From Candidatus Micrarchaeota archaeon (lineage in GTDB: Archaea; Micrarchaeota; Micrarchaeia; Micrarchaeales; Micrarchaeaceae), in contig JAGWFU010000001.1 of the NCBI GenBank assembly GCA_028867845.1, positions 1-32,342 on the forward strand: a stretch of 32,342 nucleotides of DNA, written 5' to 3'. How positions within the stretch are numbered: the stretch's first letter is position 1; each line of letters opens with the position of its first letter. Position numbers and translations under genes: made by a program. The notes beneath the pieces are model-generated. The model saw only the letters and a program-made list of their open reading frames with translations. It was not told where the DNA came from and searched no databases. Positions 2,400-19,934 of this stretch are shown here, one piece after another.

Positions 2400-3656
2400 A
2401 TGCAATTCAAGTTTTTCGGCGCGGCACAGGAAGTTGGGCGTTCAGCCATATTCATGAAGGACATAAAGGGCATCATGTTCGACTACGGGATAAAGCTCGG
2501 CACGGAGAAGCCCGAGTACCCGATAGGCCTGCCCCAGGTAGATTCCGTTGTGCTCAGCCACGCCCACATAGACCACTGCGGCGCGCTGCCGATGATATAC
2601 AACGGGCAGTACGTGCCCACATACGGCACAAGGCCCACGCTCAAGCTCGCGAACATACTTCTTGACGACTCGCTCTCAGTAGCGAGGAAGAACCACACGC
2701 AGGCGAAGTTCAGCAAGAGGCAGATAAAGGCGTTCAACAACAAGTTCCAGAACAAGGACTACCACCACCCGTTCAGGATAGGCGACATGGAGCTCGAGTT
2801 CTACGATGCAGCCCACATATCGGGCAGCGCTGCCACTCTTATAACTAGGAAGAACGCGAAGGCTAACAAGCGCGTGCTTTACACCGGCGACTACAAGCTC
2901 AGCGAGCAGGCGCTGCACAAGGGCGCTGAGACCGTGGAGTGCGACGTCATGGTCACAGAATCGACTTACGCCACAAGGAAGCACCCGCAGAGGGAGGAGC
3001 TGATAAACAGGTTCATCAGCAAGGTCAAGGAGACGCTCGACGCGGGAGGAAACGCGCTTGTGCCGGTCTTCGCAGTTGGCAGGAGTCAGGAGATACTTTA
3101 CCTGCTCCATAAGCACAACCTATCGGGTTACACTTACATAGACGGCATGGCAAGGGCCGCAACCAAGGCAGTGCTGGACTTCCCCAACTACATAAGGAAC
3201 GCGGATGAGCTCGAAGACGCGCTGGGGGAGGCTACAGTCATATCGGAGCACTCGCACAGGAAGGAGGCGCTAGAGAGCCCATCGGTAATACTCACGACCG
3301 CGGGGATGCTGAGCGGCGGACCGGTGCTCAACTACATAACCAAGCTCAACAAGTACTCCCACATAATGCTCACCGGATACCAGGTCGAGGGCAGCAACGG
3401 AAGGACCCTGCTCGACCACAAGAAGGTCACGATCGAGGGAGTGGTCCACAAGATAGACACACCCGCAACGTACTTCGACTTCTCGGCCCATGCTGGCAAG
3501 GACGACCTATACGACTACGTGAAGAGATGCAACCCGAGCACGGTCATCTGCATACACGGCGACGCGGAGAACTCGAAGGACTTCGCTGAGAACCTCACTC
3601 TGGAGGGATACAAGGCATACGCCCCTCAGCTCGGAGAGACGATCAAGCTTGACTGA
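2400..3656 (+). CDS. Beta-CASP family metallo-beta-lactamase-fold ribonuclease (aCPSF2/RNase J-like, no KH domains)
   Basis: 418 aa. MBL motif 2 is VVLSHAHIDHCGALP, with downstream D/H motifs (YTGDYK, ESTYA, FSAHAG, IHGD) in the order typical of beta-CASP nucleases. Confidence 0.85.
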   Translation: MQFKFFGAAQEVGRSAIFMKDIKGIMFDYGIKLGTEKPEYPIGLPQVDSVVLSHAHIDHCGALPMIYNGQYVPTYGTRPTLKLANILLDDSLSVARKNHTQAKFSKRQIKAFNNKFQNKDYHHPFRIGDMELEFYDAAHISGSAATLITRKNAKANKRVLYTGDYKLSEQALHKGAETVECDVMVTESTYATRKHPQREELINRFISKVKETLDAGGNALVPVFAVGRSQEILYLLHKHNLSGYTYIDGMARAATKAVLDFPNYIRNADELEDALGEATVISEHSHRKEALESPSVILTTAGMLSGGPVLNYITKLNKYSHIMLTGYQVEGSNGRTLLDHKKVTIEGVVHKIDTPATYFDFSAHAGKDDLYDYVKRCNPSTVICIHGDAENSKDFAENLTLEGYKAYAPQLGETIKLD

Positions 3657-8445: not shown

Positions 8446-8552
8446 GGAAGGAATCTGATTCCAGGGGTTAAAAGGCTTTTCTCCAACTGGCCCTTTTCGG
8501 GGCCAAAAACCAGGTCTGCAAAAGCTGAAAGGAAGTAAAAACCCCCGTAGAT

Positions 8553-8566
8553 ATGCTTTAAATACT
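8553..8566 (+). promoter_or_regulatory. Putative TATA promoter for the radical SAM operon
   Basis: ATGCTTTAAATACT lies about 45 nt upstream of ATG 8607. A GGTG Shine-Dalgarno-like element lies 8-11 nt before the ATG. Confidence 0.4.
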
Positions 8567-8606
8567 TTGAATGGCCTATTCTAGCTGTAGTTAGTGGTTG
8601 ATATAG

Positions 8607-10658
8607 ATGGCTAATGTTAACGAAATCAAGGTCGAGGGCGTAAAGGCCCAGGTGCAGACTCAGACCCAGGTGCAGCCGCAGGCGCAGCAGCCCATGGATC
8701 CCGCCCTGGCACCCTACCACAGGACCATGGAGGAGATAGAGGCCATGCCTGTGATAGAGAAGACCATGACGGTATGCCCTGAGTGCAAGCTCATAGTCAA
8801 CGGAATAATATACAAGGACGGGGACAACGTGATGATAAGGAAGCACTGCCCCGAGCACAACTGGACAATTGAGAAATATTGGGAAGACTACGACATGTAC
8901 ATGAAGATGAGGCGTTACAATTACTTCGGAAGGGGATTCGACAACCCCAACTTCATAACCGAGACGAAGGGGGCGAACTGCCCCTTCGACTGCGGAATGT
9001 GCGAGAGGCACAAGTCCCACACCGGATTGGCCAACGTCGTGGTAACGAACAGGTGCCACCTGTCGTGCTGGTACTGCTTCTTCTATGCGAAGGAGGGAGA
9101 GCCGATCTACGAGCCCTCCACTGACGAGCTCAGGAAGATATTCAAGAACCTGAGGAACCAGAAGCCCATACCTGCCAACGCGCTCCAGATAACTGGAGGA
9201 GAGCCGACCATGCACCCCGACATAGTGGGTGTAATCCAGGCGGCGAAGGAGGAGGGATTCGACCAGATCCAGCTCAACACGACTGGAATAAACCTTGCGC
9301 TGAACCCTGAGCTGGCGTACAAGATAAAGCACGCGGGCGCGGGAACTCTGTACCTCAGCTACGACGGAGTGAGCAAGAGGGCGAACCCCAAGAACCACTG
9401 GGAGGCCCCGCTCACGCTGGACGTGGCGAGGAAGGCCCACATAAACGTGGTGCTGGTACCCACTGTAATAAGGACGATAAACGACCACGAGCTGGGCTCG
9501 ATAATCAACTTCGCGCTCAACAACACCGACGTCATAAAGGCGGTGAACTTCCAGCCGGTATCGCTGGTGGGAAGGATGCCTACGAGGCTGAGGGAGAAGC
9601 AGAGGATATCGATTCCGGGAGCGATCAAGCTGATAGAGAAGCAGACCAACGGCGTGATAAGGAAGGAGCACTGGTTCTCGGTGCCTTACGTCGGAGGGAT
9701 AAACAAGTTCATAGAGGCGCTCACTGGAGAGTACAAGTACGACCTCTCCATACACTTCGCGTGCGGAGCTGGCTGCTACATATTCCTCGACAGCGACAAC
9801 AAGATAATACCGGTCACTGAGTTCGTCGACGCCGCAGGAATGCTCGACCACCTGCAGAAGGCGGTCAACGAGATGGAGGGCAAGGGCAAGCTCGCGAGGA
9901 AGGCCATCGCGGTCAAGACGCTTCTGGGCATAACCAAGTTCATAGACAAGAAGAAGCAGCCCAAGTCGGTCAACTTCATGAAGCTGCTGATGTCGATATT
10001 CACGAAGCACGACTTCGGCTCGATGGGAACGCTGCAGATGAAGTCCCTCTTCTTGGGGATGATGCACTTCCAGGACGAGTACACATACGACATCCACAGG
10101 GTCGAGAAGTGCGACATACACTACGCGATGCCCGACGGAGAGGTTCTCCCGTTCTGCACGTTCAACGTCTTCCCAGAGGTATACAGGGACAAGGTGCAGA
10201 AGCAGTACTCAATCCCGACCAAGGAGTGGAGCAAGACCCACCCGAGCTGGGGATACTCCAAGGACAAGTACATAAGGAACGTCAAGGAGTGGGAGGCCAC
10301 AGAGCCTTACAGGAGGACCTACGGCATGATGAAGGACTACTTCGCCATGCAGGTAAACGGAGGGATTCCGGTGGCGAACTTCGCCAACGAGAAGTTCGAC
10401 GGAGTTGCACCAGCAGTCGCTGCAAAGCAGCAGGTCGCCGTTATGGCAGCACAGCCTGCAGCTCACCAGGAGCAGACCATGAAGGTCGCTCCCTCTACTG
10501 CAGCTACTCATGCAGCAGTCCACCACGCCCACGAGGAGCACTCCGAGAAGAAGGAGGGAGACTCATGCGGCTGCGGAGGCGGGTCATGCGGATGCGGCAA
10601 GGGAGCCGAGGCTGAGGGCGATTCGTGCGGCTGCGGAAGCGGCTCGTGCGGATGCTGA
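8607..10658 (+). CDS. tes: Radical SAM protein of the tetraether lipid synthase (Tes/GDGT-MAS)-like type, with an added C-terminal His- and Cys-Gly-rich tail
   Basis: N-terminal zinc-ribbon/rubredoxin-like CPECK...(22 aa)...CPEH. A second Cys cluster is CPFDCGMCERH. The radical SAM CX3CX2C motif is NRCHLSCWYCF, and the SAM-binding GGEP is ITGGEPT. The C-terminal conserved block is GMMHFQDEYTYDIHRVEKCDIHYAMPDGEVLPFCTFNV. As I recall it, this architecture is that of Tes-family enzymes. The family assignment is from memory, not from a search. Confidence 0.7.
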   Translation: MANVNEIKVEGVKAQVQTQTQVQPQAQQPMDPALAPYHRTMEEIEAMPVIEKTMTVCPECKLIVNGIIYKDGDNVMIRKHCPEHNWTIEKYWEDYDMYMKMRRYNYFGRGFDNPNFITETKGANCPFDCGMCERHKSHTGLANVVVTNRCHLSCWYCFFYAKEGEPIYEPSTDELRKIFKNLRNQKPIPANALQITGGEPTMHPDIVGVIQAAKEEGFDQIQLNTTGINLALNPELAYKIKHAGAGTLYLSYDGVSKRANPKNHWEAPLTLDVARKAHINVVLVPTVIRTINDHELGSIINFALNNTDVIKAVNFQPVSLVGRMPTRLREKQRISIPGAIKLIEKQTNGVIRKEHWFSVPYVGGINKFIEALTGEYKYDLSIHFACGAGCYIFLDSDNKIIPVTEFVDAAGMLDHLQKAVNEMEGKGKLARKAIAVKTLLGITKFIDKKKQPKSVNFMKLLMSIFTKHDFGSMGTLQMKSLFLGMMHFQDEYTYDIHRVEKCDIHYAMPDGEVLPFCTFNVFPEVYRDKVQKQYSIPTKEWSKTHPSWGYSKDKYIRNVKEWEATEPYRRTYGMMKDYFAMQVNGGIPVANFANEKFDGVAPAVAAKQQVAVMAAQPAAHQEQTMKVAPSTAATHAAVHHAHEEHSEKKEGDSCGCGGGSCGCGKGAEAEGDSCGCGSGSCGC

Positions 10659-10693
10659 GACGCAGCTTCGCTACTAATTAGTCAGTGCTTCAT

Positions 10694-11389
10694 ATGGACC
10701 ATACAACTGCAGGACCGGAGGCAAAGCAGGCGGAGGAGGAGAACGCAAACTTCAACGCCTACGTCACCGAGGATGGCAAGCAGTACAGGGTCCCATACAG
10801 GATGATTAAGAGGCTAATTTTCTCCAACGTCAAGAAGGAGGAGCTGCAGGACATACAGCACTCAGCAAGATTGCAGTACAGGCTCATGCTGATGGATCCA
10901 GTGATCAAGGCGAACGTCAACTTCACCAAGAGGATCATAACGATTCTGTACAACCCCAAGACTGCGGAGAACATAAGGGAGAAGACCAGCAGCGAGGAGC
11001 TCATCCAGTTCCTCGCCAAGCAGGGGGTAAACGTCGACACCAACTCGATGGCCGAGGAGGACTACGACTACTACAAGAACCTCTACACCTACGCCTACAT
11101 GCCCCCCACGATCAGGGAGACAACTCCATACGGATACACGAAGGAAGAGTGGCTCAAGATAAGGGACGACTGGAAGACGAAGATGACGAAGGTCGAGGCC
11201 GGCAAGCTGGGCAAGCACAGGGAGTGGCAGGACAGCTACCTTGAGGAGAATCCCGAGATAGCCAAGGTGATAGCGCCCGAGTTCAAGCCCAAGGCCGCGG
11301 CGGTGGTCAAGAAGTCGCTGCTCGGCGGCATATTGGGGAACAAGGAGGCCAAGAAGAAGGAGAAGGGATTCTGGTTCCACGGAATCTGA
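10694..11389 (+). CDS. Hypothetical protein with an HMA (ferredoxin-like)-fold-like segment lacking the CxxC metal site, and a Lys-rich C-terminus
   Basis: ATG at 10694 (the track begins at GTG 10685). DPVIKANVNFTKRIITILYNPKTAENIREKTSSEELIQFLAKQGVNV resembles the GV..v.V.l....a.V.Yd......eel..ai..aGy half of heavy-metal-associated domains. No Cys occurs where GMxCxxC would be. Codon usage is typical of this window. Confidence 0.55.
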   Translation: MDHTTAGPEAKQAEEENANFNAYVTEDGKQYRVPYRMIKRLIFSNVKKEELQDIQHSARLQYRLMLMDPVIKANVNFTKRIITILYNPKTAENIREKTSSEELIQFLAKQGVNVDTNSMAEEDYDYYKNLYTYAYMPPTIRETTPYGYTKEEWLKIRDDWKTKMTKVEAGKLGKHREWQDSYLEENPEIAKVIAPEFKPKAAAVVKKSLLGGILGNKEAKKKEKGFWFHGI

Positions 11390-11404
11390 TTTTTCAGTGA
11401 GCGG

Positions 11405-12085
11405 ATGCAGAAGACACTCGTACTTATAGACCCGGACAGGGCGCTGGTCAGGGAGGCCAAGAACGTATCCCAGTACTACATGGAGGGGATAAGGATGGTC
11501 TACGGCGTCTACATGGAGGACATAAACCTCGACGAGTTCGTGGGCAGGACGACGCAGGAGACTGTGATAGAGCTGCTCCAGAGGAACGGAGTGCCGCAGG
11601 AGGAGATAAACGAGAAGCTCCACGTATTCGCGGAAGAGCTGCCGTACGAGCACTACAACGTAGCGGGCCACGACGCCGCCATTCTTGGCGACGGGACAAA
11701 GGACGCTTTAGAGAGATTGTCTAAGGACAACGACATAATATTGGGCGCGGCATCGGGCCAGCTAGAGAGGATACTCAAGAACATGTTCGAGCGTGCAGGG
11801 CTGAAGATGGAGTCGTATTTCAAGTTCGGAGCGTACGGCGACGCGGCGGTAGGGATGGAGGGCATACTCAACGCAGCCCTGGGCAAGGCGAACGGATTCG
11901 GCATTCCGAAGGAGAGGATATTCTTTGTCGGGTACTCGCCGCAGTCCATAACGGCTGCAAAGGCGCTGGGCATACGCACCATCGGCATATCCACTGACTA
12001 CTTCTTCAAGGAGCAGCTATCCCACGCCGGGGCAGAGCAGGTTACGAAGAGCCCGAGGGACATACCTAAGCTTACCAGAAACTGA
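11405..12085 (+). CDS. HAD-superfamily hydrolase-like protein (phosphoglycolate phosphatase-like fold) with degenerate motifs
   Basis: Motif I-like LVLIDPDRAL (DxD present, GT absent). A cap-like helical region follows. Motif II-like ILGAASGQ. The motif IV region is FFVGYSPQSITAAKALGIRTIGIS, where canonical proteins have VGDS..DI.AA..AG. It starts 15 nt after the preceding gene. Confidence 0.55.
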   Translation: MQKTLVLIDPDRALVREAKNVSQYYMEGIRMVYGVYMEDINLDEFVGRTTQETVIELLQRNGVPQEEINEKLHVFAEELPYEHYNVAGHDAAILGDGTKDALERLSKDNDIILGAASGQLERILKNMFERAGLKMESYFKFGAYGDAAVGMEGILNAALGKANGFGIPKERIFFVGYSPQSITAAKALGIRTIGISTDYFFKEQLSHAGAEQVTKSPRDIPKLTRN

Positions 12086-12093
12086 GCCGCAGG

Positions 12094-12110
12094 AAGATAC
12101 CTATTTATAC
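12094..12110 (+). promoter_or_regulatory. Putative BRE/TATA promoter for the pilin-like adhesin gene
   Basis: AAGATACCTATTTATAC lies about 30-35 nt upstream of the GTG 12134 / TTG 12143 candidate starts, which suggests a leaderless or short-leader transcript. Confidence 0.4.
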
Positions 12111-12142
12111 CTGCGATTTCCCATAGCTAATCGAGTGATTCG

Positions 12143-14761
12143 TTGGAAGGCAGGGTCAAGGCGCAATCCGCGATGGAGTATCTCTCCACCTACGGCTGGG
12201 CGATACTCGTAATAGTGATTGTCGCAGCGCTTCTGTACCTGTACTCCTCGACGCCATCAACCGTCGTACCCACCTCCTGCAAATTCATAAGCGGGGTGTA
12301 CTGCAACGACATAGTGCTGGGCACCAACGCGATGACCAAGGCCACTACGGTCGGGCTGTTCCTAACTAACTCCCAACCCTACCCTATGGCCAAGCCCTAC
12401 TTCTTCGCGAAGGTCGCGGGCGCGAACACCACAGGCACATCATGCTCGCCCAACTACGTCCTCGCCGGAGGCTCAATGGTCTGCGTGCTCAACCTGCCAG
12501 TATCAACCACGATGGGCCAGTTCCTTGCAGGCAACCTTTACCTGAATGCGACTTACTGCGGGCTGCAGCCCAACTACTCGCAGGCGAACCTGTGCAACAC
12601 AGCGCCAAGGCAGACCTACATAGGGATCTTCAATTCGCACGCAGAGCCGCTCATAAGCACTAACACTATAATAACTCTGGCAGCCGCCAACGCCACGCAG
12701 TCGGCCAACGGCGCGCTTGACCCGCTGATAGCTACTGTCACGCTTCTCGGATACCCGCTCTCAGGGGCGTCTGTGAACTTCACGGCGAACGTCCCCGGCT
12801 ATCCACTGTCGCCCAACTTCACGACTACGAACACCACAGGGAAGGCACTCAGCCACATATCAGGCACCAGGACAGGCAACGTGCTCGTGACCGCAGCGTA
12901 CGCAGGTGAGGACGCCAACGCTGTGGTGCAGTTCGTGCCTGCGACAAACGTAAAGTTCGCTGTCACGGGATTCCCCTACTGCTCTACAGCAGGCCAGATA
13001 ATAACTATCGACGGGACTGGTTACACCTGCGGCCAACTCACATCGACGACCTTTTCGTGGGGCGCTGGAAGCGTCCACTCCTGCGTAGTCAACGCGATAG
13101 TGCCTGACACCTCAACCATAAGGGGGGCGTGCAAGACCACTGGAGTCTACTGCTCGGCGAACTCCAACGCCGTCATAACGATCAACTGCACGCCCCAGTA
13201 CTACCTCACCGAGTCCGCAAGCCCGCCCGCCGGCGGGTCTATATCCCCCGGCAGCAACTGGTACAACAACACCACTCCTGTAAGCATAAGCACGGCCAAC
13301 AGCGTGGGATACACCTTCCAGGGATGGGCAGGCTCAGGCACCGTGTCCTACACCGGCTCCTCCAACCCCGCCACAGTGACGATGGACTCGCCGGTTGCCG
13401 AGCAGGCCACATACTCGCTGCAGGCGACGTTCTTCGAGAGCGGCCTCGCCGGCGGCACATCGTGGGCAGTGACGCTCAACGGCAACACCCTCTCCACTAC
13501 GGGCACGTCCATAACCTTCACCGGCCTGCCGTCTGGCTCGTTCCCGTGGAGCACCAACGCCGTGGTATCCTGCGGCACTGGGTGCCAGTACCTGGCGTCG
13601 CCCACATCGGGCATGGTATCGACTACGGGCGGTTCCGCGTCCCAGACGGTAACATACACGCCCCAGTACTACCTCACGATGGCAGCTGGGGCAAACGGGG
13701 CTGTCTCGCCATCGAGCGAGTGGCAGAACTCTGGCAACGTGGTGACCATAACAGCCACGCCCAACGCCAATTTTGCGTTTAGCGGCTGGACAGGCACTGG
13801 TTCGGGTTCCTACTCCGGGACAGCGAACCCCTCTACAGTGACAATGAACGGGGCGGTATCGGAGACCGCAGCATTCGCATTCCAGACTACTTACAATCCC
13901 GCGAGCGGCAACTACGCCGGCGATGTGATATTCAGCTCGTCCACAACACTTACCGGCGCCGTCATCGCCTCTAACATGGTGCTGGTGCAGAGCGGCGTTA
14001 CCGTTAATGAGAATGGTCAGTATCTGGAGGGCAACATACTGGTGCAGAATGTGGGCACTATCAATGATGGCTATGACGGCGGCGCCGGAGGTGCTGGGGG
14101 CACTGCTGGTGGCACAGGCGGCAACGGCGGGGCAGGTGGCGCACTAAAAAGCATGACAAGTGCATATTTCAGCCAAATGCTTACAGGTGGACATGGTGGC
14201 AATGGCGGCGGGGGCGGGGGCGGGGACTGCAGCTATTGCGGCAGCGCCTATGGCGGTATTGGTGGTGCTGGCGGAGCGGGAGGAGGCATAGTTCAAATTT
14301 ATTCAGGAAATGTGATTAACCAAGGAATAGTCACTGTTAGCGGCGGCAATGGGCTGCCTGGTGGCTCGGTGAGCGGGGCAGGTGGCGGGGGCGGCGGGGC
14401 AGGTGGCGGGGGCGGCACAATCTTGATAGGGTACGGTGGTAGCTTTACCGCAGGCACGCTATACTATGGCAAGGGTACCGACGCCATTGGTGGAACAGGA
14501 ACCGGCGGTTCAATTACAGAAGGTTCTGGCGGTTCTACTGGTGGAGGCGGAGGAGGCCAAGGCACGACCATCCCATCAGGCAGCCCCTGCAACGAATATA
14601 TAGGAGGAAGTGGCGGCAACGGCGGTGGCGGCGCTGCAGGCGGTGCTGGCGGGGTAGGAAACAACTGCGGCCCATCTAGCCCTGCCGGCGGCAACGGGGC
14701 CTCTGGGACCAATACAAATTCTGCTGGGCAACTGATTACAAAATCGGGATGGACGCCTTAA
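12143..14761 (+). CDS. Giant type IV pilin-like (class III signal peptide) surface protein/adhesin. Modules: pilin-like N-domain, Ig-like (Big_1-like) domain, InlB-B-repeat-like modules and a glycine-rich C-terminal region.
   Basis: The N-terminus (M)EGRVKA|QSAMEYLSTYGWAILVIVIVAALLYLY is a short basic leader, then Q-x-S-x-E-Y/L and a hydrophobic helix, as in archaeal prepilins (E at +5). The start must be non-ATG (TTG 12143 or in-frame GTG 12134, just after a TAA at 12128), because ATG 12173 would delete the leader. Big_1-like segment: LIATVTLLGYPLSGASVNFTAN...TTNTTGKALSHISGTRTGNVLVTAAYAG. Two InlB-B-repeat-like units: TPQYYLT....GYTFQGWAGSG...SNPATVTMDSPV...ATY and FAFSGWTGTGSGSYSGTANPSTVTMNGAVSETAAF. 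The C-terminal ~250 aa are (GGx)n-rich with interspersed beta-strand-like IVQIYSGNVINQGIVTVSGGNG and TILIGYGG. Confidence 0.8.
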   Translation: MEGRVKAQSAMEYLSTYGWAILVIVIVAALLYLYSSTPSTVVPTSCKFISGVYCNDIVLGTNAMTKATTVGLFLTNSQPYPMAKPYFFAKVAGANTTGTSCSPNYVLAGGSMVCVLNLPVSTTMGQFLAGNLYLNATYCGLQPNYSQANLCNTAPRQTYIGIFNSHAEPLISTNTIITLAAANATQSANGALDPLIATVTLLGYPLSGASVNFTANVPGYPLSPNFTTTNTTGKALSHISGTRTGNVLVTAAYAGEDANAVVQFVPATNVKFAVTGFPYCSTAGQIITIDGTGYTCGQLTSTTFSWGAGSVHSCVVNAIVPDTSTIRGACKTTGVYCSANSNAVITINCTPQYYLTESASPPAGGSISPGSNWYNNTTPVSISTANSVGYTFQGWAGSGTVSYTGSSNPATVTMDSPVAEQATYSLQATFFESGLAGGTSWAVTLNGNTLSTTGTSITFTGLPSGSFPWSTNAVVSCGTGCQYLASPTSGMVSTTGGSASQTVTYTPQYYLTMAAGANGAVSPSSEWQNSGNVVTITATPNANFAFSGWTGTGSGSYSGTANPSTVTMNGAVSETAAFAFQTTYNPASGNYAGDVIFSSSTTLTGAVIASNMVLVQSGVTVNENGQYLEGNILVQNVGTINDGYDGGAGGAGGTAGGTGGNGGAGGALKSMTSAYFSQMLTGGHGGNGGGGGGGDCSYCGSAYGGIGGAGGAGGGIVQIYSGNVINQGIVTVSGGNGLPGGSVSGAGGGGGGAGGGGGTILIGYGGSFTAGTLYYGKGTDAIGGTGTGGSITEGSGGSTGGGGGGQGTTIPSGSPCNEYIGGSGGNGGGGAAGGAGGVGNNCGPSSPAGGNGASGTNTNSAGQLITKSGWTP
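14373..14414 (+). repeat. Perfect 2 x 21-nt tandem duplication inside the glycine-rich coding region
   Basis: GCGGGGCAGGTGGCGGGGGCG at 14373-14393 is repeated exactly at 14394-14414. It encodes GAGGGGG twice. Confidence 0.9.
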
Positions 14762-15076
14762 TTACTAGGCCGGTTAGGTATCGCACTCAGACAGCAACTG
14801 ACTACTTCTCCTCTCCAAGGATCAGCTATCGCAGCGGGGTGCGGAGCAGTAACCAAGAGCTCTAAGGACATCCCGATACTCGTGAGGGGTTGAGCCCACA
14901 GGGAAGGGGGCACAATCAATACTTATCCCACATGCGCCCTGTGTGTCAAATACGGGGCGACGGGAGCTCCTGCAACTATCAAGGCTGCACTGACAACGGT
15001 AGTGCAGGAGACTGAGGCACAGCCATAATAGCTTTCGACGCCCTTGGGCACGGAAACCCATAGATGATGCCCGATA

Positions 15077-15087
15077 CTATTTTTAAG
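15077..15087 (+). promoter_or_regulatory. Putative TATA box for fibrillarin
   Basis: CTATTTTTAAG is centred about 30 nt upstream of ATG 15114. Confidence 0.45.
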
Positions 15088-15113
15088 ATGAGCATGCAAA
15101 GCTGTATGATTAG

Positions 15114-15770
15114 ATGGCGGTAAAGCGGCTCTTCGAGAACGTCTATCTGATAGACGGGAAGCTGGCCACCCCGAACCTGAAGAGGGGCAAGAGGGTATAC
15201 AACGAGGAGCTGGTGCAGGTCGACAGCACAGAGTACAGGCTGTGGAACCCCTACAGGAGCAAGCTCGCCGCTGCGATACTCAACGGCATGAAGAACATGT
15301 CGATAAAGGAGGGCTCGGACGTGCTCTACGTGGGAGCGGCGACGGGCACCACGGTCAGCCACGTGAGCGACATAGTCAAGGGGGGCAGCGTCTTCGCCGT
15401 GGAGCTGGCGGAGAGGAACATGAGGAACCTGTTGGAGCTCTGCGACGCCAGGGACAATATAATGCCCATACTCTCCGATGCGAGGCAGACCGAGAACTAC
15501 GAGTCCGTCGTGGGCAAGGTGGACGTCATGTACCAGGACGTATCGGCGAAGGAGCAGGCCGCCATTCTGCTTGCCAACAGCAGGTTCCTGAAGGAGGGAG
15601 GCATAGCATACTTCATAATAAAGTCGCAGAGCGTAGACATATCGAAGAGGCCGAAGGAGGTGTACGAGCAGGAGCTGAAGCTGCTCGAGGGTGCCTTCAA
15701 GATAGAGGAGCGCATAAGCCTAGAGCCCTATGACTCTATGCATCTGTTCGCGGTGCTGAGGAAGGTGTGA
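15114..15770 (+). CDS. flpA: Fibrillarin-like rRNA/tRNA 2'-O-methyltransferase
   Basis: 218 aa. YRLWNPYRSKLAAAILNG, the SAM-binding VLYVGAATGTTVSHVSDIV, and DVMYQDVSAKEQAAIL are hallmark fibrillarin motifs. Confidence 0.92.
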   Translation: MAVKRLFENVYLIDGKLATPNLKRGKRVYNEELVQVDSTEYRLWNPYRSKLAAAILNGMKNMSIKEGSDVLYVGAATGTTVSHVSDIVKGGSVFAVELAERNMRNLLELCDARDNIMPILSDARQTENYESVVGKVDVMYQDVSAKEQAAILLANSRFLKEGGIAYFIIKSQSVDISKRPKEVYEQELKLLEGAFKIEERISLEPYDSMHLFAVLRKV

Positions 15771-15772
15771 GG

Positions 15773-16594
15773 ATGGACCAGAGGAGGTACATGGATTATA
15801 TCTCAAAGTTTGCCACAGCTACGCGGCTCCTCTGCATACACTGTGGGGCAGAGACCCCATCATTGGGGCAGTTCTCCCTATGCTCAGCGTGCGAGAACAT
15901 AGTCGACACAACTGCTGACGCGGCGGCAAAGACGCCAGCAATGGCAGACTCGATAAGGCAGATAAAGGCTCTTGTCGACTCGGGGAATTTCGACGCTGCG
16001 ATTGCGGCATACAAGGGAATAGACCCGACGATGGAGGAGCCGGCACTGCTGTACGCGCTGGCGCTGCTGTACATAAGATACTCCAACAGCGTGCTCGGCG
16101 GAGTCAATTACACAAAGCAGGGATTCATGTACGAGAACATCGATATGCGGGACAGGTCGCTGGCACTGATATCGCTGTCGAAGAGGATGCTTGCCAGGGC
16201 GATAGTGCTTCTCACTGCATCTCTTGCAAAAGGAGAGGAGTACAGGCAGCGTTACCTCCTGCTGCTGTGCCAGATTAAGTTCGGGAAGATCAGGGGAGCA
16301 AGCGAGAGCATTGAGGCACTGAAGAAGTCCAGCCAGCCCGCATTGGCGTCCTACGCATCCCTTCTGCTTGACGCGAAGAGCGGAGAGATGGAGCCCATGC
16401 GCGCGGCCATCGAAGAGATGGAGAGATCGGGAAACATATTCGTTAATACCTTATTTTACGATGCGTACTTGGACTTGAAGGAGAGGAAGGCGGATTCTGC
16501 AAGAATGAAGCTTGCTGCGCTCTCGGCGTACTCGGAGAGCCAGAGTATTGAGGCCTTGATGGAAGAGATAAAGGAGGCCTTGGACCCGCAGTGA
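15773..16594 (+). CDS. Hypothetical protein: N-terminal zinc ribbon plus an all-helical (TPR-like) body
   Basis: ATG 15773 is 2 nt after the fibrillarin stop, and the alternative GTG 15767 overlaps it. The zinc ribbon is CIHCGAETPSLGQFSLCSAC. The rest is predicted helical with TPR-like A/L/Y periodicity. No Nop domain motifs were seen. Confidence 0.6.
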   Translation: MDQRRYMDYISKFATATRLLCIHCGAETPSLGQFSLCSACENIVDTTADAAAKTPAMADSIRQIKALVDSGNFDAAIAAYKGIDPTMEEPALLYALALLYIRYSNSVLGGVNYTKQGFMYENIDMRDRSLALISLSKRMLARAIVLLTASLAKGEEYRQRYLLLLCQIKFGKIRGASESIEALKKSSQPALASYASLLLDAKSGEMEPMRAAIEEMERSGNIFVNTLFYDAYLDLKERKADSARMKLAALSAYSESQSIEALMEEIKEALDPQ

Positions 16595-16600
16595 TTCAAT

Positions 16601-17203
16601 TCACTGCTTGTAGGAGATTGATACCTGGTTGTTGTAAAGAAGCGCGTTCTGCGTGAGCAGCGCCCGTACAGTCACGCCTATGATTGAGTTTATCGGTATG
16701 AGCGGCGTGAAGTTCAGCGGGTATGTGCCGTTTATCGGCACAGCAAACTCCTGACTGCCAACGAGGAGGTTCGACTTGCCGGTCAATCTTGCGTTGGCAG
16801 TGGCCATGATCGTTATTGCGTTGGTCGAGTTAAGTTGACTGTAGAGCGTCTGCTGGAGCGAGTACGCGCTAATCCCCCCCAAAACGATCTCGTACTCGGC
16901 GCCGTTGCTTATGTAGTTCTGGATGGTCCCGCTGTTCCTCAGAGCCGAGAGAGTGCCGAGAACTGAGTTTGTGACCTCGGGGCTGTTCGAGTTGATCCCC
17001 AGCATCGCAGTGCTGGAGTAGCCGGCTATGACCACGTTGGCAGTGCCCGCTGCGAAGAAGCTCTGCTCCTGTATCGAGCTGGTAGTGGAGCTTGAAGCCA
17101 CTGCTGGCGCGTTGCTGCTGATCCCGAGGTAGGAGAATATGAACATCAGCCCTATGAAGACGGAGCCAGCAAACAGCAGCTTCTTCTTTCTCTTCTCCTC
17201 CAT
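16601..17203 (-). CDS. Hypothetical exported or membrane-anchored protein
   Basis: 200 aa. Basic N-terminus plus hydrophobic helix (MEEKRKKKLLFAGSVFIGLMFIFSYLG), then a Ser/Thr/Asn-rich mature part. It starts 7 nt downstream of the FKBP gene on the same strand. Confidence 0.6.
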   Translation of the reverse strand: MEEKRKKKLLFAGSVFIGLMFIFSYLGISSNAPAVASSSTTSSIQEQSFFAAGTANVVIAGYSSTAMLGINSNSPEVTNSVLGTLSALRNSGTIQNYISNGAEYEIVLGGISAYSLQQTLYSQLNSTNAITIMATANARLTGKSNLLVGSQEFAVPINGTYPLNFTPLIPINSIIGVTVRALLTQNALLYNNQVSISYKQ

Positions 17204-17210
17204 GCGCGCT

Positions 17211-17852
17211 TCAGCTCTTCTGCTTCGCCTCCTCAGGCCTCACGTACTCTTCGTCGATGTCCACCTTGCCCACGTTCTTGAAGTAGGTGAAGATGCCAGC
17301 GACAAGGTTGGCCTTGCCCATGAAATAATCAGCGTTCTTCTTTACCGAGTTGTCGAAGCTCAGCCTGACATCCTTGTCCTTCACATCGATCTTTGTTACA
17401 TCAAGGCCGGTCATCTTGCCGAGTGCAGATATCTTCTCCTTGTCGTCGGTGAGGTTCTTCACTACCTTGACCTCGTATGTTATCTCCCTGCCCGCGAGCG
17501 GGTGGTTTGCGTCCACTACCACTCTTCCGGAGTTGACGCTCTTCACTATCGCGGTCATGTTGTCCAGGTTCACCTGAAGACCCGGATACGGATCTATATC
17601 GTGCTTCCTGAACTCCGCAATCGGCATTATCCTGACGAGGTCCTCCATGCGCTCGCCGAACGCCTCATCGGGCTTAAATGTGGCCTTCTTGCTCTCGTTG
17701 ATGCCCATAGAGTGCAGCTCCCTGTCGAGCCCCTTTATCACTCCCTTGCTGCCCAGAACCACGAGCACCGGCCCGTAGCTGTTCTCCTTCTCGTGGGGCG
17801 CAGGCAGCGTGCACTCCTGCGTCGTCAACGCGATAGTGCTGGACACCTCCAC
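17211..17852 (-). CDS. Long-type archaeal FKBP (SlyD-like peptidyl-prolyl isomerase with IF/flap and C-terminal domains). The N-terminal strands are replaced, so it may be a pseudogene or a chimera.
   Basis: YGPVLVVLGSKGVIKGLDRELHSMGINESKKATFKPDEAFGE...IMPIAEF...GLQVNLDNMTAIVKSVNSGRVVVDANHPLAGREITYEVKVVKNL aligns by eye with archaeal FKBPs from about residue 45 onward. The ~30-40 N-terminal residues (..GD.V...Y.G....G.VFDTS..) are absent. The first ~23 codons of the ORF are the antisense of the adhesin-gene remnant at 17784-18026. Confidence 0.65.
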   Translation of the reverse strand: MEVSSTIALTTQECTLPAPHEKENSYGPVLVVLGSKGVIKGLDRELHSMGINESKKATFKPDEAFGERMEDLVRIMPIAEFRKHDIDPYPGLQVNLDNMTAIVKSVNSGRVVVDANHPLAGREITYEVKVVKNLTDDKEKISALGKMTGLDVTKIDVKDKDVRLSFDNSVKKNADYFMGKANLVAGIFTYFKNVGKVDIDEEYVRPEEAKQKS

Positions 17853-18026
17853 GATAAGAGGGGGGCCTGCAAGACAAACAACGTCTACTGCAGCGCGAGC
17901 CAGAACTCCACAATAACAATCAACTGCACGCCCCAGTACTACCTCACCGAGTCCGCAAGTCCGTCCGCCGGCGGCTCTGGCATTGTGGTAATAGCGTACA
18001 ACTCCCTAGGCAACGGGAATCCATAG
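17784..18026 (+). pseudogene. Chimeric, frameshifted remnant of a pilin-like adhesin paralogue: an A-type internal segment fused to a B-type C-terminus
   Basis: 17784-17975 is about 80-85% identical by eye to 13051-13242 of the 12143-14761 gene (SFSWGAGSVHSCVVNAIVLDTSTIR / GACKTNNVYCSASQNSTITINCTPQYYLTESASPSAGGS versus TFSWGAGSVHSCVVNAIVPDTSTIRGACKTTGVYCSANSNAVITINCTPQYYLTESASPPAGGS). A 2-nt insertion sits at the AAGAGGGGGG run (about 17858-17866). From about 17976 it continues as GIVVIAYNSLGNGNP*, matching the last residues of the 18279-19934 gene (GIVIIAYNALGNGTP*), also at the nucleotide level. Confidence 0.8.
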
Positions 18027-18241
18027 ACGTCCCCCCTCTCTGTCGTATCCCGCTAATATCTCCCCTCTTTAAGTCTTTACCCACAAGAAGAATGCCCAAC
18101 CGCTTGTGGCGTGGTTAAGGAACGAAGCTAGAGTACTTCGTGCCTGCCGCTATCCGATGCCCCGCCCCTTGGGATGGGGTTATCCACTTCTGTCGGGAAG
18201 AAATTCTGGCGGGACAACACACAAAGCCAGTATCGCCGTAA

Positions 18242-18252
18242 GATTATTAAAC
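18242..18252 (+). promoter_or_regulatory. Putative TATA box for the second pilin-like gene
   Basis: GATTATTAAAC is centred about 30 nt upstream of ATG 18279. This favours ATG 18279 over the in-frame ATG 18174. Confidence 0.35.
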
Positions 18253-18278
18253 TGTTACAGATAAGGCATATAGATTTG

Positions 18279-19934
18279 ATGGGGGGGGGAAAGGGCAAAC
18301 GGCTGAAACAGCAGTCGGCGCTGGAGCTGCTCACAACCTACTCGTGGGCCCTCCTGATAATCGCCATATTCGTGGCGGCAGTCGCAGTGATAAACAGCGC
18401 AAGGCCTGCGACCAACTATCTCGCATCCTCATGTTCAATAGAGCCACTTCTCCTGTGCACCCAGACCCTTCTCAACTACAACGCGATAAGCCCGATAAAA
18501 TTCACAATCCTCTTCCAGAATAACTTAGGGCAGACGATGTACTTCCCACTCAACTCGATCAACATAACTGTGACGAACATAGGCAACAAGGGAGTGACAT
18601 ACTCGAAGGGCAACTGCACCCCCTCCCTTGCACTGCAGGGCACGCCGATACTTTGCAGCGCCTACATACCCGGTACGTTCAAGCCCGCGATAGGAACGCA
18701 GGAGACCATACTGTTCTCGCTGAACTACCAATTGTGCAGGACCAACGCGCCCTCCTCCTGCGCCTCGACGCAGTACAGGACGGCCGGCCAGTCGTCGCAG
18801 ACCATGGCGCCCTCGGCAACCGTGTTCCACACGCTGAAGATAACTGCGAGTCCAACCTCGGGGTTCGTGAACCTCAACGGGGTGACATATCTCAACAACG
18901 CCAACGTCCTGCTTCTCACCAACAACTACAACGTGTACGCGATACCACCATCGGGGTACAAGTTCTCCTCTTGGGGAATCAGTGTGGGGGCAGGAGGCGG
19001 GACCTCAAGCGTCGTATCCAGCTCCACGCAGAACACGATACTCAATCTGGGGTCCAACGCGACCCTGACCGCCAACTTCGGCACCTTGCCGACTACGAGC
19101 ACGGTGACCCTGACTTCTACGTCAACGGCCTCAACCTCATCAACAACTACGTCATCGACTACAACAACCACCATATTCGCTGCTACCTGCGGAGGGAGCG
19201 CCAGCTCTTCATCCGGCAACACGATCTGCACATTTACCTCGAGCGGAACGTTCACACCTAACGGCGCAGGAAATGTTGCGGTTCTTGTAGTTGCGGGCGG
19301 AGGCGGCGGCGGAAAGTCTGGATTCGGAGGTGGAGGTGGGGGAGGCGTAGTCTATGCTTCATCGTATGCTGTAAGTAGTGTTGCTTACAGTGTTACAGTG
19401 GGCGGCGGCGGAAGTGGCGCGTACGATAATAACGGAATCAGCTCTGTATTCAGTACCATAACGGCAATTGGGGGTGGAGGAGCTTCAGGCCAAAACGGCG
19501 GTTCTGGGGGCGGATGTATGGGATGTAGTGCAGGAGGAACATCAATACAAGGAAACAGCGGCGGCGGAACCGGATATGGAAATAACGGTGCTGGAGTCTT
19601 AGATGAGTCCCATAGTGGCGGTGGTGGCGGTGCTGGGAGCCCGGGTAGTGCTGGATCTCCAGGAGCAGGCGGTGCAGGCGGATCCGGTATGGCATTTAGC
19701 ATTTCAGGTTCCGTGGTGTATTATGCCGGTGGAGGAGGGGGAATTTATGGTGGTGCTGGAGGTTCTGGGGGCGGAGGGAATGGCGTAGCCACCAATGGCA
19801 ACAATGGCTTTCCAGGAACTGCAAATACAGGCGGAGGCGGGGGCGCCGGAGGAGCAAGCGGAGATAATGGAGGAGATGGGGGATCTGGCATAGTCATAAT
19901 AGCGTACAACGCCCTTGGCAACGGCACTCCCTAA
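18279..19934 (+). CDS. Type IV pilin-like (class III signal peptide) surface protein with one InlB-B-repeat-like module, a Ser/Thr linker and a C-terminal polyglycine-rich domain (Gly_rich / ALK-LTK GRD-like)
   Basis: The N-terminus is MGGGKGKRLKQ|QSALELLTTYSWALLIIAIFVAAVAVI (Q-x-S-x-E motif plus hydrophobic helix). The pilin-like head has paired Cys. The B-repeat-like unit is GYKFSSWGISVGAGGGTSSVVSSSTQNTILNLGSNATLTANF. The linker is TSTVTLTSTSTASTSSTTTSSTTTTT. Then comes CTFTSSGTFTPNGAGNVAVLVVAGGGGGG....GGGGGGVVYAS...Y.VTVGGGG......GGGG...GGSGGG...YAGGGGG...NTGGGGGAGG...GGDGGSGIVIIAYN. This is the strand/poly-Gly alternation I recall for the 'glycine rich protein' family that includes the ALK/LTK glycine-rich domain. 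The track ORF starts at the in-frame ATG 18174. Confidence 0.8.
   Translation: MGGGKGKRLKQQSALELLTTYSWALLIIAIFVAAVAVINSARPATNYLASSCSIEPLLLCTQTLLNYNAISPIKFTILFQNNLGQTMYFPLNSINITVTNIGNKGVTYSKGNCTPSLALQGTPILCSAYIPGTFKPAIGTQETILFSLNYQLCRTNAPSSCASTQYRTAGQSSQTMAPSATVFHTLKITASPTSGFVNLNGVTYLNNANVLLLTNNYNVYAIPPSGYKFSSWGISVGAGGGTSSVVSSSTQNTILNLGSNATLTANFGTLPTTSTVTLTSTSTASTSSTTTSSTTTTTIFAATCGGSASSSSGNTICTFTSSGTFTPNGAGNVAVLVVAGGGGGGKSGFGGGGGGGVVYASSYAVSSVAYSVTVGGGGSGAYDNNGISSVFSTITAIGGGGASGQNGGSGGGCMGCSAGGTSIQGNSGGGTGYGNNGAGVLDESHSGGGGGAGSPGSAGSPGAGGAGGSGMAFSISGSVVYYAGGGGGIYGGAGGSGGGGNGVATNGNNGFPGTANTGGGGGAGGASGDNGGDGGSGIVIIAYNALGNGTP

Follow-up and report, generated by a model that had tools for sequence, protein, structure and literature searches.

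A 243-base stretch of DNA, lying just upstream of a pilin-like surface-protein gene (gene B) of a Candidatus Micrarchaeota archaeon, is very probably the non-functional relic of a third gene of the same family, produced by two joins at short microhomologies and by a frameshift. The window, that is, the whole 32,342-nt stretch that was analysed, also contains gene A, a second member of the family; the features of the region are listed in Table 1.

Table 1. Features of the rearranged region, in window coordinates.
Feature	Position	Strand	Description
Gene A, 872 aa	12143..14761	+	Class III (type IV pilin-like) signal peptide KAQSAMEYL; Gly-rich C-terminus
Second, older ghost	14767..15063	+	Copy of the HAD_2 3′-end and decayed Gly-rich tail ...GTAIIAFDALGHGNP before a stop; in-frame stop
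Block of fibrillarin, 275-aa ORF, 200-aa ORF and truncated FKBP	15026..17794		Cut at both ends
FKBP26-type peptidyl-prolyl isomerase gene	17211..17795	-	Lacks its first 37 codons; ORF continues to a GTG at 17852
Junction 1	17786..17794		9-nt microhomology CCTTCTCGT; FKBP antisense codon 38 / pilin-like gene codon ~303
Middle-domain piece of a C-type pilin-like gene	17786..17978	+	Equivalent of A codons 303-366 and of residues 293-356 in P0014
Junction 2	17970..17978	+	GGCGGCTCT (Gly-Gly-Ser), overlap of the A-type and tail homologies
End of a Gly_rich_2 domain	17979..18026	+	Last 15 codons and TAG, GIVVIAYNSLGNGNP before the stop; C-terminal tail common to the whole family
Gene B, 551 aa	18279..19934	+	Signal peptide KQQSALELL

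Two homologies were recovered when positions 17600-18300 were compared with the rest of the window by BLASTN and by local alignment: 17786-17978 matches 13050-13240 in gene A with 82.9% identity over 193 columns with one gap (E 6e-53), while 17970-18025 matches 19878-19933, the last 18 codons of gene B, with 82.1% identity over 56 nt (E 1e-10); the fragment ends at a TAG stop (18024-18026). Both homologies had been noticed in a sequence-only reading of this DNA, whose coordinates prove correct within 2 nt and whose identities, estimated by eye, stay well clear of background when computed; the distance it gave, 250 nt upstream of B, agrees with the ATG of B at 18279, and the Gly-Ser microhomology that it had described at the jump between the two pieces corresponds to the GGCGGCTCT overlap.

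The translation of the fragment reads SFSWGAGSVHSCVVNAIVLDTSTIRGG in the first frame and then, past a 2-nt insertion, ACKTNNVYCSASQNSTITINCTPQYYLTESASPSAGGSGIVVIAYNSLGNGNP followed by TAG in another frame. The insertion, already described in that reading, is located at 17857-17859, beside a run of six G residues (17860-17865), and shifts the frame. The first piece has no in-frame start codon. Archaeal pilin-like proteins are defined by the motif of the class III signal peptide; in a six-frame scan of the window, QSA[ML]E[YL]L turned up at two places only, 12164 in A and 18312 in B, with a hydrophobic helix after it in both, and was absent from the fragment, from which codons 1-302 of the parent gene are missing. 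Thus, the disabling lesions of a pseudogene occur together with significant homology to a functional family, and the description of the fragment as a dead remnant, with its frameshift and without a start codon or signal peptide, appears sound.

The 32 mismatches between the fragment and A fall mainly at third codon positions (18/32), with dS 0.46, dN 0.117 and dN/dS 0.25. Such a pattern is expected of a coding paralogue that has diverged, and the similarity is far above chance; the dS and dN values further suggest that the parent was a separate gene, under selection for most of its history, rather than a recent copy of A. An ORF of 295 aa that covers the fragment (17139-18026) runs mostly antisense to FKBP and was judged spurious. 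Only the last ~17 residues of Gly_rich_2 (PF21722, a 226-position profile) are kept in the fragment, too short a piece to score, and the assignment of the tail to this domain comes from the nucleotide and amino-acid tail alignments; when the frame-corrected fragment peptide of 79 aa was used as a query, the protein search returned no candidates.

The identity of the parent is indicated by P0014, a protein of 668 aa retrieved by a protein search with B, whose gene is on a 586,870-nt Micrarchaeota contig and in two further, independent assemblies. Its N-terminal 415 residues are A-like (70% identical to A) and are followed by a Gly_rich_2 domain ending GSGIVIIAYNALGNGTP. The frame-corrected fragment aligns with residues 293-356 of P0014 at 70% and with residues 650-668 at 84% amino-acid identity; the two pieces are 294 residues apart, and in P0014 the sequence AGGS stands before both deletion end-points. 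P0017 shows the same architecture. Since both pieces are found in one natural gene type, recombination between A and B is not needed, and the comparison argues that the fragment is a third family member and not an A x B chimera: the loss of about 290 codons (~0.9 kb) between two Gly-Gly-Ser repeats of the same type as at junction 2 would explain it. The internal deletion at Gly-codon microhomology that the sequence-only reading had proposed is in line with this.

The same reading had also taken the fragment for a fusion in which the C-terminus of B follows an internal piece of A, and in this respect it is not upheld. A recombination between the A and B genes of this genome is a slim possibility: within the window, A and B are indeed the best matches of the two pieces, but each piece is ~17% diverged from its counterpart, mostly by synonymous changes, so that no recent copying is seen, and P0014 and P0017 already hold both pieces in this order. 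The tail, too, is closer to the gene of a relative than to B, the nucleotide identity of its 51 nt (17976-18026) being 86% with a 437-aa gene of locus L002, 82% with B and 76% with the P0014 gene. The similarity of about 80% to B claimed for it is therefore correct, but “B-type” is too narrow a name, as the ending ...GSG[IV]V[IV]IAYN[AS]LGNGxP is common to many Micrarchaeota Gly_rich_2 pilin-like proteins. P0014 is the nearest relative found for the parent gene (70% aa); the latter may have been either a paralogue within this genome or imported DNA.

The left edge of the fragment, which the sequence-only reading did not remark on, is a breakpoint in a housekeeping-type gene on the other strand. 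FKBP homology ends at 17795 by tblastn and at 17794 by BLASTN, and the window sequence across the junction reads ...GTTCTCCTTCTCGTGGGGCGC...; in a comparison that took in the FKBP orthologues of L001 and L002, gene A and L089, the orthologues match up to CCTTgTCGT and A matches from CCTTtTCGT on, the shared microhomology being CCTTnTCGT. The profile matches of the window FKBP begin late, at position 32 for Pfam FKBP_C and 31 for NCBIfam; FKBP_C is matched over profile positions 32-76 of 94 only, next to a complete IF domain (63 bits), so that the pair of complete domains of an FKBP26-type isomerase is lacking. The orthologues in all eight related loci (L001-L008) have about 37-46 extra N-terminal residues. 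Moreover, all of the eight relatives have spt4 and rpoE′ no more than 3 kb from FKBP, and six have them adjacent to it; neither gene was found in the window. The late start of the profile matches, the longer orthologues and the absent spt4-rpoE′ pair together indicate that one illegitimate join decapitated both the pilin-like gene and FKBP.

The frame of the truncated FKBP gene is open and, relative to L001 and L002, it shows no rate acceleration; either the truncation is recent, or the rest of the gene is still useful. The truncated gene, together with the ORF that reads 19 codons into the fragment in antisense, might still be expressed, in which case the fragment DNA would not be entirely inert. 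The 200-aa ORF downstream of FKBP (16601-17203) has possibly lost its operon promoter too. The relatives compared for FKBP are contigs of Candidatus Micrarchaeota/Micrarchaeaceae MAGs, which marks the window as DNA of a DPANN archaeon; L001 is an exception in its label, Candidatus Acidiferrales bacterium, and the content of this MAG is Micrarchaeota-like.

These observations may be assembled as follows. The parent would have been a C-type gene, encoding a type IV pilin-like signal peptide, an Ig-like domain, the middle domain, an InlB B-repeat and a Gly_rich_2 domain ending ...GSGIVIIAYNALGNGxP, and it would have been working until fairly recently. An illegitimate join through the 9-nt microhomology would have placed its codon ~303 head-on to FKBP codon 38, removing the promoter, signal peptide and first 300 codons on the pilin-like side and the first 37 codons of FKBP with its upstream operon partners on the other; a deletion of ~0.9 kb between GC-rich direct repeats encoding (A)GGS would have joined the middle domain to the last 15 codons, and the 2-nt insertion would have shifted the frame. 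The homologies, the sequences at the two junctions, the truncation of FKBP and the synteny are directly observed. The joins could have been made by replication slippage or by microhomology-mediated end joining, and both this mechanism and the order of the events, like the loss of function, are inferred.

An assembly or amplification artefact, with a mis-join of the metagenome contig at 17786-17794 and/or 17970-17978, is quite unlikely. Members of the family often occur at the ends of MAG contigs, and thus disturb assemblies; the N-terminal modules of a tandem gene pair in L092 are identical, and junction 1 was not found in any independent contig, a 24-mer across it giving no match in public metagenome contigs. 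On the other hand, only 9 nt are common to the two sides at each junction, less than the k-mer sizes of assemblers, and the fragment is 17% off every other sequence of the contig, which argues against a collapse of reads from A and B. G+C content is uniform across the locus, with no sign of foreign origin, and a more decayed ghost at 14767-15063 shows that real decay has occurred here.

The relic, as the fragment is preferably read, lies in a locus that is itself rebuilt. In two related populations a single C-type gene occupies the interval between HAD_2 and L7Ae (L089/L090/L091, with P0014, and L094/L095/L096, with P0126), whereas in the window this interval extends over 7.8 kb and contains A, the second ghost, the transplanted block from fibrillarin to FKBP, the fragment and B. 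The window is collinear with L089 over 8469-13364 and from 19818 on, with short matches at 19224-19312 and 19668-19738, and with L094 up to 12939 and then from 19227 on. From this collinearity, A now begins with the 5′ part of the native gene and B now ends with its Gly_rich_2 portion; the two halves of what is one gene in the relatives stand 5.9 kb apart. Since A keeps the native N-terminal part and B the native Gly_rich_2 end, the fragment is not the native copy, and the third family member invoked by the sequence-only reading is thus retained. That reading had also called the locus rearranged and the family variable, as the contrast with the single gene of the relatives bears out. Metagenome loci anchored on L7Ae were too remote for a comparison of the region upstream of it. 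Look-ups of the exact protein sequences of three window genes and of P0002 (KGH66_00535, from one of the two nearest MAGs, the other being REEA50 with KGH58_00875/00880), P0121 and P0122 gave no record.

The second ghost, which had also escaped remark, consists of two parts. Positions 14767-14906 repeat, in degraded form, the final ~125 nt of HAD_2, aligning to 11961-12096 (BLASTN E 2.6e-8 over 14797-14874), and they are followed at ~14940-15063 by a Gly-rich tail, recognized by tblastn with B residues 529-551 (E 0.005) and by the tail alignment. In L002, an intact gene for a Gly_rich_2 pilin-like protein, the 437-aa one with the closest tail, stands at the position of the ghost, beside fibrillarin. 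The presence of this second, more decayed ghost suggests that the process is recurrent at the HAD_2-L7Ae locus. The fibrillarin-FKBP block is collinear with L002 7677-4913 at 74.8% nucleotide identity, and in the relatives the conserved cluster runs on from FKBP into spt4-rpoE′. In L001 the place taken by the 275-aa ORF and fibrillarin in L002 and the window is filled by a Gly_rich_2 gene (2448-3211, minus strand) convergent with the 200-aa ORF; even close relatives differ in where family members lie. The spacer of ~210 nt between the fragment and the promoter region of B (18027-18235) has no similarity to the fetched loci or the rest of the window by BLASTN and tblastx. No tRNA genes were found in the window, and Rfam gave no match there, nor any in 17600-18400 even at a relaxed threshold; accordingly, there is no support for an integration targeted to a tRNA gene or for an RNA gene within the 250-nt spacer.

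Relative to the genes of the relatives, A and B look mosaic, a further feature absent from the sequence-only reading. The first ~415 residues of A are positionally orthologous to P0014, while its middle resembles a D-type gene of L092 (62.6% aa); an A-like architecture is already present in P0121, from another relative, and the Pfam matches of A are a weak Big_1 and two InlB B-repeats (Flg_new_2). The N-terminal 270 aa of B are a D-type module (87% to P0002, 75% to P0003), and its C-terminal Gly_rich_2 domain (69.8 bits against PF21722, residues 320-543) is collinear with the 3′ half of the P0014 and P0126 genes. The D-type promoter and N-terminal module of B have their counterpart ~360 kb away in the L089 genome, in a tandem gene pair. 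At least five rearrangement junctions, the fragment among them, can be counted in this 7.8-kb mosaic of surface-protein genes; the mosaic takes the place of the single gene of the relatives, and the relic would record repeated recombination among modular surface-protein genes.

Another origin of the mosaic, a Campbell-type single crossover of a circular element carrying a D-type gene (with A as C5′/D3′ and B as D5′/C3′), was considered and rejected: B lacks the InlB repeat that a reciprocal exchange should have given it, and the A-like architecture pre-existing in P0121 also disfavours it. Tandem D-type pilin-like genes are seen in L092 (10001-14572); the two, of 834 and 672 aa, share an N-terminal module of ~290 aa, and their C-terminal modules are unrelated (fn3 and DUF2341 versus InlB repeats). 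P0002 has a third kind of C-terminal module on the same N-terminal module.

An adhesin role for A and B is plausible from their domain content, namely the class III signal peptide, Big_1, InlB B-repeat and Gly_rich_2; no pilus assembly genes lie within the window. Archaeal type IV filament (TFF) systems are described as including class III signal peptide (SPIII) proteins that carry Ig-like and adhesin-like domains (bioRxiv 10.64898/2026.04.22.720090). A, B, P0014 and P0008, among others, resemble these in having [KR]-[GAQ]-QSA[ML]E[YL]L and a hydrophobic helix, then Ig-like, InlB B-repeat and Gly_rich_2 domains, whereas in the fragment the signal peptide and almost every domain are gone.

Taken alone, the fragment is an ordinary pseudogene relic. 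Like prokaryotic relics produced by deletion at microhomologies or short direct repeats, it is truncated, without a start and frameshifted, with ~9 nt shared at both junctions; an intact homologue exists elsewhere, and the changes that preceded inactivation bear the mark of purifying selection. It departs from them in that one of its junctions also truncates FKBP, and in lying inside a mosaic with multiple breakpoints rather than as an isolated decayed gene. Together with the ghost, the truncated FKBP and the arrangements of the relatives, it becomes a marker of how Micrarchaeota pilin-like surface proteins are rebuilt: exchangeable modules are joined by homologous and microhomology-mediated recombination, sometimes at the cost of neighbouring housekeeping genes. 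Diversification is known for the surface proteins of DPANN archaea: in Nanoarchaeota, the highest densities of non-synonymous SNPs are found in cell-surface genes and in genes related to the type IV pilus, to which a role in host contact is ascribed (PMC6142677). The Micrarchaeota family is comparable in that it varies between genomes in module content and position, but here the variation arises from exchange of modules, from deletion and from translocation, not from point substitution. Micrarchaeota need contact with host cells, and the finding bears on how DPANN archaea diversify their host-contact proteins; the modular reshuffling of these pilin-like proteins is noteworthy, if of modest interest. 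It also concerns annotation and binning, as gene callers may yield the spurious 295-aa ORF or a 213-aa “FKBP”, and such genes commonly break assemblies.

That the fragment is instead a silent donor cassette, a promoterless partial copy kept for gene conversion into A or B as pilS is for pilE in Neisseria, is most unlikely. The layout is similar: a promoterless, 5′-truncated pilin-like copy lies directly upstream of an expressed-type member, B, conserved nucleotide motifs flank variable parts, and the family swaps modules between genomes. A 21-nt domain-border motif, CACGCCCCAGTACTACCTCAC, encoding TPQYYLT where the InlB B-repeat modules begin, occurs in identical form at 13189-13209, 13657-13677 and 17927-17947 and is a candidate substrate for module exchange. 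However, pilS-like systems have multiple partial copies with segmental conversion, while here there is one frameshifted copy of 240 nt and one decayed tail, with no array. The long identical stretch is kept in the orthologue P0014 too, so it gives no sign of recent conversion; beyond what this orthologue conserves, no patch of the fragment is unusually close to A, and the ghost nearby is plainly decaying. The organism is an archaeal episymbiont whose host has no adaptive immunity, and the likeness with Neisseria is one of layout only. Conversion driven by a G4 element was set aside, as no G4 motif occurs near A or B, and so was a diversity-generating retroelement, the 32 mismatches being spread over all bases (fragment A 10, C 11, G 6, T 5) and not adenine-specific, as those of a template would be.

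A broader proposal is that the HAD_2-L7Ae locus is a dedicated site of programmed surface variation, in which A and B exchange sequence with partial, silent copies (the ghost at 14767-15063 and the fragment) via conserved domain-border motifs and Gly-codon repeats, and B is switched by a homopolymer at its start; this is very unlikely, and the relic of a third pilin-like gene remains the preferred reading of the fragment. The homopolymer, a G9 tract at 18281-18289 right behind the ATG of B, is the longest G/C run in the contig, and the D-type relatives in L092 begin ATGATGAGCGGC..., without such a run. The tract might serve B as a slipped-strand on/off switch, and offers a lead for phase variation, or it might be a place where sequencing errors arise easily.
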